DNA from: Alphaproteobacteria bacterium
GTDB taxonomy: Bacteria; Pseudomonadota; Alphaproteobacteria; Micropepsales; Micropepsaceae
Assembly (NCBI GenBank): GCA_021325375.1
Contig: JAJPHG010000033.1
Location: 230 to 64,229 of the forward strand
Length of the DNA stretch: 64,000 bases
Reading direction: 5' to 3'
Below are positions 33,579 through 42,603 of this stretch, one piece after another; the stretch's first letter is position 1, and each line of letters starts with the position of its first letter. The translations under genes and the position numbers were made by a program. Under the pieces are notes generated by a model. The model was not told the origin of the DNA, made no database searches, and was given only the letters and a program-made list of their open reading frames with translations.

Positions 33579-34955
33579 CTATTGGGACGGCAGCGCGCGC
33601 TCGAGCGCGGCACCATCTTCATCTTTAAGCGCGGCTTCGCGCAACCGGCGCAAGGTTGACGCCGCGTCGGGTGTGCCTCGGACGCGGCGATACGCCTCCA
33701 TCACGGTCTCGAACTTGGCGAGACCGCGCGCATGCGTGTCGCCATAGCCTTTGATCAGGTTCTGCGCGCGTGCCAGTTCGATCGCCGCAGCCGGATCGGC
33801 TTCGCCTGCCACGGCCGCGAGCCAGACCTCGATGCGCGTGTTCTCGGTCCTGTAGCGCAACGTCTTGCGCCGCTTGCGGCGGCGTCGCGCCAGCATGCTG
33901 AGCATCAGGAACCAGCCGACATTCGTCGTGCGCACGCGCCGGCCCTTCGCGAAGAACGGCGCGAAGAGGCGTTTCAAGCTCCTGTTGCCGAGCAGCCAAG
34001 CGCCGAGCCCCGCGGGGAGCGTGTCGCAGACTTCCTCCCAGCGCGGATGCATGTACTCGCTGACATGGACGATCTGTCCGGGCAACGCCTTCACCTCTTC
34101 GCGCACCTCGTCCATGCGCGCGCGGCGGATCTTGAGCTGCGACACGCGCATAACGTCCTCGTAGGACATCCACAGCGCCAACGCGCGCGCCATCTCGGTT
34201 CTCACCTGCGGATCGGCGAAGGCCTTGAGCCGCTCCAGATAGAGCGCGGCGTAGTCGGCGTCCTGATACTCGGTGAGGCGGCGCACGCCTTCCTGCACCA
34301 CATCGATCGGCGCGGCCGGCGCCTTGTCCGCGTCGCGCCCCTCGAAGCCGGCCGCGAAGCCCGCGAGATTGGCATCGACGGCGATCCTACTGTCGCGGAT
34401 CGCCGTCTCGAAGGCGTCGCGCGGGAAGGGCAGCGTGCCGCTCGCGGCAAGCGCGCCCAGCATCACCGCGCTGATCGCGGCGCCGTTGCGTTCGCTCGCC
34501 GCGTCCATGTCGAACATGACGACGGCTTTCGCATTCTTCGCCGCCGCTTCCATCACTTTCGAGCCGTCGCCCGCGCCGCCGGACACGGCCGACTTCTCCG
34601 CGATGGCGTAGATGCGGTGCGTGGACGCGATGAGCGTCGTGCGATCGGGCGTGACGAAGCCGCGCAGGATCGCGCGGCCCGCTTCCATCAGCTCGGAGGC
34701 GATGACCACGTCGACGTCGCCCGGCGCGGGCATGAGCGCCAGCACCGGCTCGCCCTTGCGCAGCTCGCCTTCCGGGAAGAGCTCCAGATAGTAGACCGTC
34801 GAGCCGGTGCGCTGCGCCACGCCCTGGACAGAGGTCGCCTGGGCGTACCAGCCGTTCTGCTCCGCGACCGCGATCAGCCAGTCCGACAGCACGCCGCCGC
34901 CCTGGCCGCCCAGCGCCAGCACGGCGATGGTGATGCGCTTGCGCGTCTCAGCCAT
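33579..34955 (-). CDS. iorB: Indolepyruvate oxidoreductase beta-subunit family protein
   Basis: [41 protein letters not shown] and LWMSYED motifs; overlaps the iorA stop. Confidence 0.88.
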   Translation of the reverse strand: MAETRKRITIAVLALGGQGGGVLSDWLIAVAEQNGWYAQATSVQGVAQRTGSTVYYLELFPEGELRKGEPVLALMPAPGDVDVVIASELMEAGRAILRGFVTPDRTTLIASTHRIYAIAEKSAVSGGAGDGSKVMEAAAKNAKAVVMFDMDAASERNGAAISAVMLGALAASGTLPFPRDAFETAIRDSRIAVDANLAGFAAGFEGRDADKAPAAPIDVVQEGVRRLTEYQDADYAALYLERLKAFADPQVRTEMARALALWMSYEDVMRVSQLKIRRARMDEVREEVKALPGQIVHVSEYMHPRWEEVCDTLPAGLGAWLLGNRSLKRLFAPFFAKGRRVRTTNVGWFLMLSMLARRRRKRRKTLRYRTENTRIEVWLAAVAGEADPAAAIELARAQNLIKGYGDTHARGLAKFETVMEAYRRVRGTPDAASTLRRLREAALKDEDGAALERALPSQ

Positions 34956-37041
34956 GCGCGAAGAGGGCGATGAGATGGCTGCGCAGCCACGCGGCCGCGC
35001 GGTCACGCCATGTCGGATTGAACACGATCTCGGCCTTGTAGAACGACGGACAGAGCACGTCGGCATGACTGATCTCGCCGCACAGCCCGCAGCCGACGCA
35101 GGAATTGTCGACATGGGCGACCGGATCGGTCTTCAAAGGATCGGGATTGGGCTTGATGGTGAGAGAAGGGCATCCCGAAAGCCGGATGCAGGCGTGATCG
35201 CCGGTGCAGGTCGCGGGGTCCACGCCGAAGCGTTCGCGCACCATGCGCTTGCCGTCCTTGACCGCCTTGGCGAAGAGCGGACGGGTGCGGCGCTGCTTGT
35301 TGAGCATGCATTCGGACTGCGCGATGACGAGTTTGGGGCCTTTCTCCTTCGTGGTGAGCGCCTCCCTCAGCACGTCCTGCATACGCTTGACGTCATAGGT
35401 GTCGTCGACCGAACGCACCCAGCTCACGCCTATGCCGCGCGCCGCCGTCTCGATGGCATGCTTGGTGCTGCGGTTCTTGTTGTCGGCGGCGGAGGAGAGC
35501 AGGTCCTGTCCGCCCGTCGCCGCGGAGTAGCCGTTGTCGACGACGATGGTCAAATTGTCGTCGCGGTTGAACACCGCGTTGCCGATACCGCTTGTCAGCC
35601 CGTTGTGCCAGAAACCGCCGTCGCCCATCACCGCGATCGCCCGCTTGCCGTCGCTGCGCTTGAACGCCGAGGCGCCCGCCGTGCCGAGCCCATAGCCCAT
35701 CGTTGTGTTGCCGATGTTGAAGGGGGGCAGGATCGAGAACAGGTGGCAGCCGATGTCGGCGCTGACGTGATGCTGGCCGAGTTCCCGCTGGACGAGCTTC
35801 ATCGCCGTGAACAGCGGCCGCTCCGGACAGCCGGTGCAGAACCCCGCCGGCCGCTGCGGCACTTCCCTGGCGAGCGCGGCGAGGTCGTTCGGCGCTGTCG
35901 CGGCGGCCGGCATGCCGCCCCACTGCGCCAGGAACTTCGTCACGCCGTCGCCCACCGCTTGCGCCGTGTACTCGCCCGCGCGTGGCAGAACCTCTTTGCC
36001 CACGATGCGCGTGTTGAGGTCGGCGCGGCGCAGGATCGTGTTGAGCTCGTGCTCGATGAACTCGGGCTGGCCTTCCTCGACAATGAGCACGGCGCGTTTG
36101 CCGGCGCAGAAGTCGCGCACCTCGTCGGGGATCAGGGGATAGGTGACGTTGAGCACATAGACCGGAAGCTTGGTGTTGCCGAAGCTGTCCGACAGGTCCT
36201 TCAGCTCCAGCGCGCGGTTGAGCGTGTTGAACAGGCCGCCCTGGACGATGATGCCGATGTCGCCACCGTCAGGCCCGAAGCGCTCGTTGAGCTTGTTCTC
36301 GGCGACGAACTTGATCGCGGCGGGCCAGCGCTGCTCGATCTTCTCGCGCTCGTGCAGGAAGTTCGCGGGCGGCAGCACGATGCGCTCGGTGTCGCGCACG
36401 GGATTGTCGGCCGCGTCGCGCACGGTGAAGCGCGGGCGGACGTTGTCCTTGGCCTGGAATCGCCCGTGCAGGTGGCAGGCGCGCACGCGCAGCTCCAGCA
36501 TCACCGGCGTGTGCGAGGCTTCCGAGAGCTGAAAACCTTTCTCGACCATGTTCACGATGGAGGGCAGGTTGGGGCGGGGATCGAGCAGCCACATCTGCGA
36601 TTTCATCGCGAAGGCGTGGCCGCGCTCCTGCATGATCGAGGAGCCCTCGCCGTAGTCCTCGCCCACGATCACCAGCACCCCGCCGGTCACGCCGCCCGAC
36701 GCGACGTTGGACAGCGCGTCGGAAGCGACGTTCGTGCCCACGACCGACTTCCACGCGACCGCGCCGCGCAGGGGATAGTTGACCGACGCCGCGAGCATCG
36801 CGGCGGCGGCGGCTTCGCTCGCGCTCTGCTCGAAATGCACGTCGAGCTCGGCGAGCAGGTCGTTGGCGTCGGAGAAGACGTCGATCAGATGTGAGATCGG
36901 CGAGCCCTGATAGCCGCCGACATAGGCTACGCCCGATTGGAGCAGCGCCTTGGTGACGGCGAGGATGCCTTCGCCGCGGAATTCCTCACCCGCGCCGATG
37001 CGCAGCTGTTCGACTTCGGCCTTGAAGGACCGTTCGGCCAT
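34948..37041 (-). CDS. iorA: Indolepyruvate:ferredoxin oxidoreductase alpha-subunit family protein
   Basis: [33 protein letters not shown] motif; C-terminal CTGDHAC / CVGCGLC ferredoxin motifs. Confidence 0.92.
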
Positions 37042-37042
37042 G

Positions 37043-41393: not shown

Positions 41394-42208
41394 CCCGCCT
41401 CGACCCCGCCGCGTTCAAGCCCGAACATTTCCGCTGGGAGTTCGACCGCGGTGTCGCGACCGTCACGCTGAACAGGCCGGAGCGCAAGAACCCGCTCACC
41501 TTCGAGTCCTACGCCGAGTTGCGCGACATGTTCCGAGCGCTCGTCTACACGCCTCGGGTGAAAGCGGTGATCGTGACCGGCGCGGGCGGCAATTTCTGCT
41601 CCGGCGGCGATGTGCACGAGATCATCGCGCCGCTGACGAAAAAGGACATGCCGGGCCTCCTCGAATTCACGCGCATGACCGGCGACCTGGTGAAGGCGAT
41701 GCGCGGCTGTCCGCAGCCGATCATCTCCGCCATCGACGGCATCTGCGCGGGCGCCGGCGCGATCATCGCCATGGCGTCGGACATGCGCTTCGCCACGCCG
41801 CGCGCGAAGACGGCGTTCCTGTTCACGCGCGTAGGCCTCGCGGGCTGCGACATGGGCGCGTGCGCGATCCTGCCGCGCCTGATCGGACAGGGCCGCGCGG
41901 CGGAGCTCCTTTTCACGGGCAGGTTCATGACGGCGGACGAGGGCGAGCGCTGGGGCTTCCACAACCGGCTTGTCGGGGCGGAAGAGCTGATGAGCACGAC
42001 GATGGAAATGGCGCGCTCGCTTGCCGCGGGTCCGACCTTCGCGCACGGCATCACCAAGACGCAGCTCAGCACCGAATGGGCGGTGAGCGTCGACGTGGCC
42101 ATCGAGATGGAGGCGCAGGCACAGGCGATCTGCATGCAGACGCAGGATTTCCGCAGAGCCTATGAAGCCTTCGCCGCCAAGACCCAGCCCGTCTTCGAGG
42201 GGAACTGA
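41390..42208 (+). CDS. Enoyl-CoA hydratase family protein
   Basis: [15 protein letters not shown] and CDMGAC motifs. Confidence 0.92.
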
Positions 42209-42210
42209 CC

Positions 42211-42603
42211 ATGCGCACGCTGCAACCGGCGGATTGGGCGCGCCCGCGCGGCTATGCCAACGGCGTCGAGGCGCGCGGACGGACGGTCTTCGTCGCGGGT
42301 CAGATCGGCTGGGACAAGGATCAGCGCTTCCAGGCCAAGGACTTCGCCGGCCAGTTCGAGCAGGCCTTGCTCAATATCGTCGCCGTCTTGCGCGAGGCCG
42401 GCGCGGGCCCCGAGCACGTCGTGCGACTCACCTGGTTCATTACCGACAAACGTGCCTATCTCGCGGATGCCAAGCGCATCGGCGAAATCTACCGCCGCGT
42501 GATGGGCCGCAACTTTCCCACGATGTCGGTGGTGCAGGTCGTCGCGCTGGTCGAGGACGAGGCCCTTGTCGAGATCGAAGCGACGGCCGTGGTGGAGGGC
42601 TAG
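42211..42603 (+). CDS. RidA family protein
   Basis: PRGYANGV, FVAGQIG and LVEIEATA motifs. Confidence 0.92.
   Translation: MRTLQPADWARPRGYANGVEARGRTVFVAGQIGWDKDQRFQAKDFAGQFEQALLNIVAVLREAGAGPEHVVRLTWFITDKRAYLADAKRIGEIYRRVMGRNFPTMSVVQVVALVEDEALVEIEATAVVEG

Follow-up and report, generated by a model that had tools for sequence, protein, structure and literature searches.

How does a bacterium bring an aromatic acid into a pathway of CoA thioesters when the operon for that pathway carries no ligase to form the thioester? The question is raised by a gene cluster in a 64,000-nucleotide stretch of DNA (hereafter the window, contig JAJPHG010000033.1 of assembly GCA_021325375.1) from an alphaproteobacterium of the Micropepsaceae. 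Two tightly packed divergent operons occupy positions 32587-42603 of the window, one encoding a cyclase-family protein and the two subunits of an indolepyruvate oxidoreductase (IOR)-like enzyme, IorA and IorB, and the other resembling the abm operon for 2-aminobenzoyl-CoA metabolism. We consider it likely, with confidence somewhat better than even, that they form a self-contained, ligase-free module for isatin utilization. In this proposal an isatin hydrolase (IH) would open isatin to isatinate (2-aminophenylglyoxylate), and IorAB, a thiamine pyrophosphate (TPP) and [4Fe-4S] enzyme of the clade that contains IadAB, would convert isatinate and CoA to 2-aminobenzoyl-CoA and CO2, passing two electrons to an acceptor. 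The AbmA-type flavoenzyme would then hydroxylate and reduce 2-aminobenzoyl-CoA to 2-amino-5-oxocyclohex-1-ene-carboxyl-CoA, the RidA-family protein would deaminate the enamine product of AbmA, and a crotonase-family enzyme, acting as a hydratase or a ring-opening hydrolase, would take part with a short-chain dehydrogenase/reductase (SDR) in ring opening and oxidation. As the oxidoreductase would itself make the thioester, an ATP-dependent aryl-CoA ligase would be unneeded and would thus have been lost from the operon. Every computational check suggested with the original prediction, which first put forward this role of IorAB, came out in its favor. Behind the proposal stand the identities of the genes, the structure of the operons, the lack of a ligase, and the fact that IH, IorAB and AbmA remain linked and have evolved together: synteny, two phylogenies and co-occurrence tie IH, the IH-linked IorAB clade and AbmA together, repeatedly without a ligase.

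The minus-strand operon begins with the gene for the cyclase, an isatin hydrolase of the IHA type (cyclase family PF04199; 37043..37819, 258 amino acids), followed by those for an IorA/IadA-like alpha subunit of a TPP and Fe-S 2-oxoacid:acceptor oxidoreductase (34948..37041, minus strand, 697 amino acids), proposed to be the isatinate-oxidizing, CoA-acylating subunit, and for an IorB/IadB-like beta subunit combining a pyruvate:ferredoxin oxidoreductase (POR) gamma domain with DUF6537 (33579..34955, minus strand, 458 amino acids). The shared promoter/operator region, a spacer of 129 bp (37820..37948) in which two dyad boxes stand in tandem, separates it from the plus-strand operon. The latter encodes an AbmA/SdgC-type FAD monooxygenase fused to an old yellow enzyme (OYE) module (37949..40219, 756 amino acids), the SDR (40216..40938; adh_short 8.4e-50), a MarR-family regulator (40935/40938..41393; MarR_2 8e-14), a PRK08258-type enzyme of the crotonase or enoyl-CoA hydratase (ECH) family (41390..42208; NF006107 482 bits versus a cut-off of 330) and the RidA-family protein (42211..42603; PF01042 3.2e-23). 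Gene content, order and divergence are thus as claimed in the original prediction, and the ECH stop at 42208 and ridA start at 42211 that it gave are both exact; likewise, we found no ANL-type ligase, acyl-CoA dehydrogenase (ACAD) or thioesterase among the genes of the cluster. The starts needed refinement: that of the cyclase is the ATG at 37819 rather than the TTG at 37879, iorA begins 1 nt past the cyclase stop, and the ATG of iorB overlaps the iorA stop (ATGGCTGA), so that the listed 511-residue open reading frame (ORF) for iorB is too long. The MarR gene starts at GTG 40935 or ATG 40938, overlapping the SDR stop, and the plus-strand junctions are 4-nt overlaps or gaps of at most 2 nt. With one further gene downstream of iorB, considered below, the cluster has nine genes, all of them intact; their GC content at third codon positions (GC3) is of the coding type and their junctions are coupled. 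IH, IorA, IorB and AbmA are each single-copy in the 4.77-Mb genome.

The cyclase matches PF04199 in Pfam (4.7e-40 over residues 40-215 of the long ORF). In phmmer comparisons with PDB sequences it recovered LaIHA (5nnb/5nna) with an E-value of 1.6e-111, RsIHA (5nmp) with 5.5e-110 and LaIHB (4j0n) with 6.5e-77, as against 1.6e-5 to 3.8e-4 for kynurenine formamidases, and it scored 26 bits against the arylformamidase model TIGR03035, whose cut-off is 223. It carries the Mn motif HxGTHxDxPxH, a RYGLQCL segment with the GLQC signature and an AWYWNNF segment with the WxW pocket. A GLQC or GLAS signature together with a WxW or FxW pocket is diagnostic of isatin hydrolases, the kynurenine formamidase KynB having I(L/I)E instead (Sommer et al., PMC6117287). 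KynB was rejected as an identity for the cyclase on its negligible KynB and arylformamidase scores, and E-values and all signature motifs answer the question of IH versus KynB, posed with the original prediction, in favor of IH. We class the protein as an orthologue of the isatin hydrolases; its predicted activity, the hydrolysis of isatin to isatinate, rests on strong orthology. The protein aligns over its full length with LaIHA and LaIHB of Labrenzia aggregata and RsIHA of Ralstonia solanacearum (5nna/5nnb, 4j0n/4m8d and 5nmp; E 1e-111 to 1e-77), from which no sequence-level difference sets it apart. A text search of the structural paper on these enzymes turned up no mention of an operon or gene cluster (PMC6117287).

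The partners of IH were examined in 80 loci around IH homologues on contigs from one genome per species, many of them incomplete. Neighbor families in these foreign loci were named by inspection of the sequence and not by family search, and conclusions were based on tblastn matches, as the crude de novo ORF calling yielded some antisense artefacts in high-GC loci. Within 10 kb of IH, IorB is found in 53 of the 80 loci and IorA in 50. A compact IH-IorA-IorB unit recurs in Rhizomicrobium, Sphingomonadales and Steroidobacteraceae, and a second architecture has the order of the iad (indole-3-acetic acid degradation) locus, IorA-IorB-reductase-Rieske alpha/beta-ligase-thiolase-OB/SDR-IH-SDR. Thirteen of the 80 loci have an AbmA-like gene no more than 10 kb from IH; 11 of these 13 lack any ANL ligase within that distance, and the other two have only the side-chain ligase IadF. 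The recurrent unit of Sphingomonadales is thioesterase-MarR-AbmA-MarR facing IH-IorA-IorB, often with gentisate-dioxygenase-like and fumarylpyruvate hydrolase-like genes.

IorA contains the TPP_enzyme_C domain (PF02775, 8e-17), and inspection revealed the TPP motif GDG...DNG and C-terminal ferredoxin-type cysteine motifs (CxxCxxC...CP, CTGCPERP), with no match to Pfam Fer4 reported in it. IorB matches the POR gamma-type domain PF01558 (2e-14) and PF20169, passes the subfamily model NF006179 with 589.7 bits against a cut-off of 348, and scores 42 bits with the IOR beta model TIGR03334, under its cut-off of 205.8. Archaeal indolepyruvate:ferredoxin oxidoreductase makes arylacetyl-CoA from arylpyruvates, and PadEFGHI of Azoarcus evansii, a phenylglyoxylate:acceptor oxidoreductase, forms benzoyl-CoA from an aryl-glyoxylate. 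Both are likewise TPP/Fe-S enzymes that convert an aryl 2-oxoacid and CoA to an aryl- or arylacetyl-CoA and CO2. IorAB of the window differs from them in being a two-subunit subfamily with DUF6537 in the beta subunit and an IOR_alpha score below cut-off, in occurring in aerobes, and in that its proposed substrate bears an ortho-amino group. By analogy with this family chemistry, and from the genomic context, we think that conversion of isatinate to 2-aminobenzoyl-CoA by IorAB has the better part of the probability.

We built a tree of 76 IorA sequences, from the IH loci and from 42 loci of an even sample of Alphaproteobacteria. All 38 IH-linked IorA, including that of the window, fall in a clade of 46 rows with SH-aLRT support of 99, which also takes in iad-type loci and Aromatoleum (L097), whereas the other clade consists of 29 rows, none with an IH inside the fetched stretch. 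The label 'no IH' requires 5 changes on this tree against a mean of 25.7 after shuffling, and 0 of 500 shuffles reach 5. In the other clade, IorAB of two loci (L120, G213:C4; L108, G034:C1) lies beside genes like those for tryptophan 2,3-dioxygenase and kynureninase and a RidA-SDR-ECH-AbmA set, with the AbmG ligase on a different contig; this is a second, distinct link between the IorAB family and the aminobenzoyl-CoA pathway.

Two side observations concern the surroundings of IorAB. A nitronate monooxygenase (NMO)-like, FMN-dependent oxidoreductase-like gene (32587..33567, minus strand; PF03060 1.2e-19), missed in the first reading, lies 11 nt downstream of iorB and is apparently co-operonic with it; the surroundings of IH in the 80 loci contain no homologue of it. 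It could encode the electron acceptor or re-oxidizing partner of IorAB, or be unrelated, and its membership in the pathway is uncertain. Elsewhere, IH-less IorAB of the IH-linked clade stand beside genes like those of tripartite ATP-independent periplasmic (TRAP) transporters (DctP/Q/M-like; L100, L114, L115, L126 and L136), and L024, L097 and L133 also have TRAP-like neighbors of IorAB. This linkage suggests uptake of a carboxylate or 2-oxoacid substrate, possibly isatinate.

Co-occurrence was tabulated over 301 evenly drawn genomes of Alphaproteobacteria, among which IorB is present in 44, IH in 9, AbmA in 56 and an AbmG-type ligase in 57. IorB accompanies IH in each of the 9 IH genomes (Fisher p 1.4e-8), and so does AbmA (p 1.5e-7); these statistics are uncorrected for phylogeny or genome size and to that extent count against leaning on them. 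AbmA is also present in 38 of the 44 IorB genomes (odds ratio 84, likewise uncorrected), including those with the IorA clade that is not IH-linked. The claim that AbmA clusters as a rule come with a ligase and a dehydrogenase holds, 50 of the 56 AbmA genomes having AbmG, usually within ~5 kb. The six AbmA-positive, AbmG-negative genomes, that of the window included, all possess IorB (6/6), and three of the six possess IH.

AbmA and its companions mediate aerobic 2-aminobenzoate metabolism by way of 2-aminobenzoyl-CoA, AbmA serving as monooxygenase/reductase and AbmG as ligase. Canonical abm operons, taken from 20 alphaproteobacterial genomes, Aromatoleum and Variovorax, read AbmA-SDR-MarR-ECH-ACAD-AbmG-(thioesterase)-RidA. 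The window operon keeps this order with ACAD and AbmG gone and ECH abutting RidA, which is the last gene of the canonical operons as well. Its AbmA is 57-68% identical to AbmA of canonical operons, the corresponding ranges being 46-57% for the SDR orthologues, which hold the same position, 45-53% for MarR and 65-73% for ECH. AbmA has PF01494 and PF00724 and scores 1260.9 bits with NF006101 (cut-off 1078); among PDB sequences its N-terminal half is VioD-like and its C-terminal half belongs with OYE. RidA scores 63 bits with TIGR00004, under the cut-off of 106. The abm cluster of Azoarcus/Aromatoleum evansii (PMC6221969) has the same order AbmA-SDR-MarR-ECH-...-RidA; the operon and genome of the window differ from it in lacking the ACAD and AbmG that stand between ECH and RidA. 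A tree of AbmA sequences puts the window protein in a clade of nine (support 97) nested among AbmG-linked AbmAs; the nine, two from Rhizomicrobium, two from Sphingomonas, four from Novosphingobium and one from Sphingobium, all adjoin IH-IorAB, and none has AbmG. The closest locus, in the Rhizomicrobium metagenome-assembled genome (MAG) L009, has the same arrangement at 76-83% identity, without ACAD, ligase or SDR. In Sphingomonas folli (L014) the genes run in a single direction as IH-IorA-IorB-AbmA-SDR-ECH-ACAD-RidA, in effect a swap of the ligase for IH-IorAB.

It is conceivable that the plus-strand operon is instead a decaying abm operon that stopped working after losing ACAD and ligase, the cluster serving only to detoxify isatin. 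The absence of ACAD and AbmG would fit, as would the two other Rhizomicrobium genomes of the class sample, which lack IorB, IH and AbmA and thus the whole module, and an AbmA homologue in another genome (G058:C4:1034806-1036980) that has two in-frame TGA codons. That homologue, with gentisate-dioxygenase-like and FAH-like neighbors and IH-IorAB 8 kb off, could reflect pseudogenization, an error of sequencing or recoding. We regard decay as very improbable. Each of the nine genes of the cluster is intact and has GC3 of the coding type, their junctions are coupled, the arrangement without ACAD and ligase recurs in MAG L009 at 76-83% identity, and the ligase-free state extends across the whole clade of nine AbmAs. 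What the two module-less Rhizomicrobium genomes do indicate is that the module is accessory.

The substrate of the plus-strand operon is a separate matter. SdgC belongs to the salicylyl-CoA 5-hydroxylase pathway of Streptomyces sp. WA46 and is of the same bifunctional enzyme family as the AbmA-like protein of the window. IH and IorAB might cooperate while the divergent operon acts on another aryl-CoA such as salicylyl-CoA, or the thioester might mainly be hydrolyzed to anthranilate for biosynthesis, the two operons being merely co-located. NCBIfam NF006101 is named for salicylyl-CoA 5-hydroxylase and not for 2-aminobenzoyl-CoA, a point that tells against our proposal; the measured end product of iad loci is anthranilate; and AbmA-like genes of Sphingomonadales, which resemble sdg in this respect, are paired with thioesterase, gentisate-dioxygenase-like and fumarylpyruvate hydrolase-like genes. 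The window differs from the sdg pathway in having SDR, ECH and RidA and, in isatinate, an amino-aromatic source. Its operon is a gene-for-gene match of the AbmG-bearing abm operon, its AbmA is nested among AbmG-linked AbmAs, a RidA deaminase is sensible only with an amino-substituted intermediate, one spacer, tandem operators and one MarR are common to both operons, and AbmA is present in every IH genome of the sample. The context of IH and RidA thus favors an amino substrate for the AbmA-like enzyme, as predicted from its strong orthology with AbmA, and we consider another aryl-CoA improbable. Within Sphingomonadales a variant module (L020, L027, L032, L040, L075 and L087) combines the AbmA-like gene with genes like those for a 4HBT-type thioesterase, gentisate 1,2-dioxygenase and fumarylpyruvate hydrolase, and two of these loci (L020 and L040) have in addition a StyA/StyB-SDR-AraC indole-oxygenase set. 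This variant could provide the genes behind an old report that gentisate occurs during the degradation of indole, by a route described as 'catalyzed by an unreported enzyme' (PMC6221969).

If the AbmA operon functions without its own ligase, one might be encoded elsewhere, and a genome-wide search for an anthranilate-CoA ligase had been suggested with the original prediction. No member of the benzoate/2-aminobenzoate-CoA ligase family TIGR02262 exceeds its cut-off anywhere in the genome (best 228 bits versus 375), and queries with Aromatoleum and Variovorax AbmG retrieved no AbmG orthologue from it (best 31.5% identity). Within the 64-kb window no ANL ligase resembles AbmG or IadF, and the genome has no orthologue of the abm ACAD, the best match being 37.5% identical and on another contig. 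The ANL ligases type as fatty-acid ligases by NCBIfam (nine typed of ~12 in the genome), and some may have cryptic aryl specificity. In the vicinity of the cluster the sole candidate for an aryl-acid ligase is a PaaK-like protein with 585 bits, under the 646-bit equivalog cut-off for phenylacetate-CoA ligase. A ligase elsewhere in the genome was rejected as a candidate, since TIGR02262, the AbmG queries and the NCBIfam typing of nine ANL ligases and the PaaK-like ORF gave no aryl-CoA ligase.

The same genome offers no upper pathway to isatin. Orthologues of iadD/E/F/G/H are absent from it (best matches RskA 31%, THL 24% and OB-SDR 32% partial), as are all upper-pathway genes for indole-3-acetic acid (IAA) of the iad or iac type, a StyA/StyB-type indole oxygenase, a gentisate dioxygenase-like gene and a TRAP transporter of the kind linked to IorAB. 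Accordingly, the module would start at isatin or isatinate here, and the assignment of the cluster to indole or auxin catabolism in the original prediction does not stand for this genome, which has no iad/iac or StyA-type genes. Tryptophan 2,3-dioxygenase was not detected in the genome either; a lone kynureninase homologue (G000:C34:86778-87974; 347 bits, over cut-off) has hslVU-like and metK-like neighbors by inspection.

The shared spacer contains two 15-nt direct repeats, TATTTCAGGCTTGAA and TATTTCATGCATAAA, at 37885-37914, each with dyad symmetry, the second sitting inside a 20-nt palindrome. The earlier description of tandem palindromes is therefore roughly right: two tandem repeats with dyads are present, and the 20-nt palindrome surrounds only the second. 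Across the 4.77-Mb genome the box ATTTCANGCNTNAA occurs in tandem at this spacer only, and a related box, TTCAAGTCTGAA, is found in Rhizomicrobium MAG L009. These tandem dyad boxes are a probable MarR operator, and the MarR encoded in the operon is likely a repressor that acts on the shared spacer, through which it would control both operons. In Sphingomonadales a palindrome, ACTTGCAnnTGCAAGT, lies upstream of IH, and loci of Sphingomonadales and Steroidobacteraceae (L010, L014, L016, L019, L020, L027, L032, L040, L058, L075 and L087) share the conserved form ACTTGCA-NN-TGCAAGT, placed 40-90 nt upstream of IH. The divergent MarR there probably uses this palindrome as its operator; it differs from the Rhizomicrobium box TTCAAG(C/T)CTGAA. 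A ligase co-regulated through the operator was also considered and rejected: the genome-wide pattern search gave just two loose extra matches, of which one, on contig C43, is 0.9 kb from a FadD4-like ligase and within a coding region. The box is upstream of no ligase, in agreement with the expectation that no co-regulated ligase exists elsewhere.

The relation of the cluster to the iad locus allows the proposal to be extended beyond the window. Homologues of iorA and iorB are iadA and iadB, 'exclusive markers' of iad-type auxin-degradation loci (PMC9613470), and iadI is the cyclase of these loci (PMC9613470, PMC12852158). IadA and IadB rise 2.5- to 3.5-fold with IAA in aerobic Variovorax boronicumulans (PMC12852158). 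The iad locus of Variovorax, Achromobacter and Bradyrhizobium (PMC9613470, PMC12633357, PMC12852158) has the same IorA, IorB, isatin-hydrolase-type cyclase and MarR regulator, isatin and isatinate are intermediates of its pathway, and its IorA falls in the clade of the window IorA. The window and its genome differ in lacking the iad upper pathway, namely the iadCDE Rieske oxygenase, the iadF ligase, the iadG thiolase and iadH, and the window differs further in that IH, iorA and iorB are contiguous and face an abm-type operon. In the searchable literature, depictions of the iad pathway stop at free anthranilate, and neither a function for IadAB nor a proposal that isatinate is converted to aminobenzoyl-CoA appears in the literature searchable in full text. 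In constructs from Variovorax, C8H7NO3 and C7H7NO accumulate strongly only when the iadC-K2 region is overexpressed (PMC12633357), and these formulas fit isatinate and 2-aminobenzaldehyde. We tentatively suggest, at slightly less than even confidence, that the IH-linked IorAB, including IadA/IadB of Variovorax, Achromobacter, Bradyrhizobium and Aromatoleum, are CoA-acylating isatinate:acceptor oxidoreductases.

Several observations weigh against these readings and have to be set beside the evidence above. IorA scores 295 bits with the IOR_alpha model TIGR03336, under its cut-off of 650.9, and no PDB relative of IorA or IorB is detectable by sequence with phmmer, which precludes reasoning from the substrate pocket. 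Enzymes of the 2-oxoacid:ferredoxin oxidoreductase type are often oxygen-labile, while AbmA requires O2. Seven IorA of the IH-linked clade, adjoining TRAP transporter genes, come from genomes without IH. The AbmG ligase is kept in 6 of the 9 IH genomes; because most genomes with IH, IorAB and AbmA retain it, IorAB would add an entry route and not be a general replacement for the ligase. Two neighbors of the cluster also count here: the gene for the PaaK-like ligase (48336-49550, minus strand), which belongs to a separate paa operon at a distance of 5.7 kb, and that for a fused E1/E2 2-oxoacid dehydrogenase, within 6 kb. Finally, Variovorax iadC-K2 without iadAB suffices for the formation of anthranilate (2025 preprint, Conway laboratory, PMC12633357), so isatinate can reach anthranilate without IorAB.

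The main rival explanation makes IorAB an ordinary oxidoreductase for arylpyruvates (indolepyruvate or phenylpyruvate), whose product, arylacetyl-CoA, would enter other routes, for instance the paa pathway 6 kb off; isatinate would pass to anthranilate by spontaneous or other enzymatic decarboxylation, and an unrecognized ligase or CoA-transferase encoded elsewhere would make 2-aminobenzoyl-CoA. The name of family NF006179 and the weak TIGR03336 match point that way, as do the proximity of the paa genes with their PaaK-like ligase and of the E1/E2 module, the anthranilate made by Variovorax without iadAB, the ~12 ANL ligases of the genome and the location of the other IorA clade away from IH. 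On the other hand, the conserved partner of the IorA clade is IH and not paa or aminotransferase genes, the compact modules have no enzyme to use indoleacetyl-CoA, and in the AbmA clade that lacks a ligase, nothing in the cluster but IorAB is a candidate for forming the thioester. The genome, moreover, has no AbmG orthologue, and the operator box precedes no ligase. We therefore judge an ordinary arylpyruvate oxidoreductase unlikely, and retain isatinate as the predicted substrate of IorAB and 2-aminobenzoyl-CoA as its predicted product.

The E1/E2 dehydrogenase invites a further alternative, that this TetR-regulated neighbor and not IorAB makes 2-aminobenzoyl-CoA from isatinate. The TetR-fused-E1-E2 module (42600-46455) adjoins RidA in the window and IorB in L009. 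Its adjacency to the module in both loci, at opposite ends, speaks for such a role; an E1 homologue is near IH in just 1 of the 80 loci, and the module has its own TetR regulator, so that we regard this alternative as highly improbable. The opposite positions of E1/E2 in the window and in L009 indicate that the ~9-kb isatin module was inverted, or independently inserted, relative to E1/E2.

All the protein families discussed here, and the iad and abm systems, were already known. What is new is the ligase-free joining of an IH-IorAB unit with an abm operon, together with the proposal of a specific function for IadAB, by which the iad, indole and isatin routes would deliver 2-aminobenzoyl-CoA. 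The product of aerobic catabolism of isatin, indole and IAA would then be 2-aminobenzoyl-CoA and not free anthranilate; the energy of 2-oxoacid decarboxylation would be captured in a thioester, and some lineages would have given up the aminobenzoate-CoA ligase entirely. The presence of AbmA in 38 of 44 IorB genomes raises the possibility that the whole NF006179-type IorAB family could feed the aminobenzoyl-CoA pathway from tryptophan-derived 2-oxoacids. The iad locus enables Variovorax and other bacteria of the root to clear auxin, so that roots grow normally, and it is being engineered into commensals (PMC12633357). The accumulation of isatinate-mass intermediates in constructs without iadAB makes the proposed function relevant to such pathway engineering. 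If correct, this role of IadAB would complete the pathway, link the catabolism of auxin, indole and isatin to the aerobic aminobenzoyl-CoA route and account for the ligase-free AbmA operons, and IorAB would represent an aryl-glyoxylate-specific, aerobe-borne addition to the 2-oxoacid:ferredoxin oxidoreductases.

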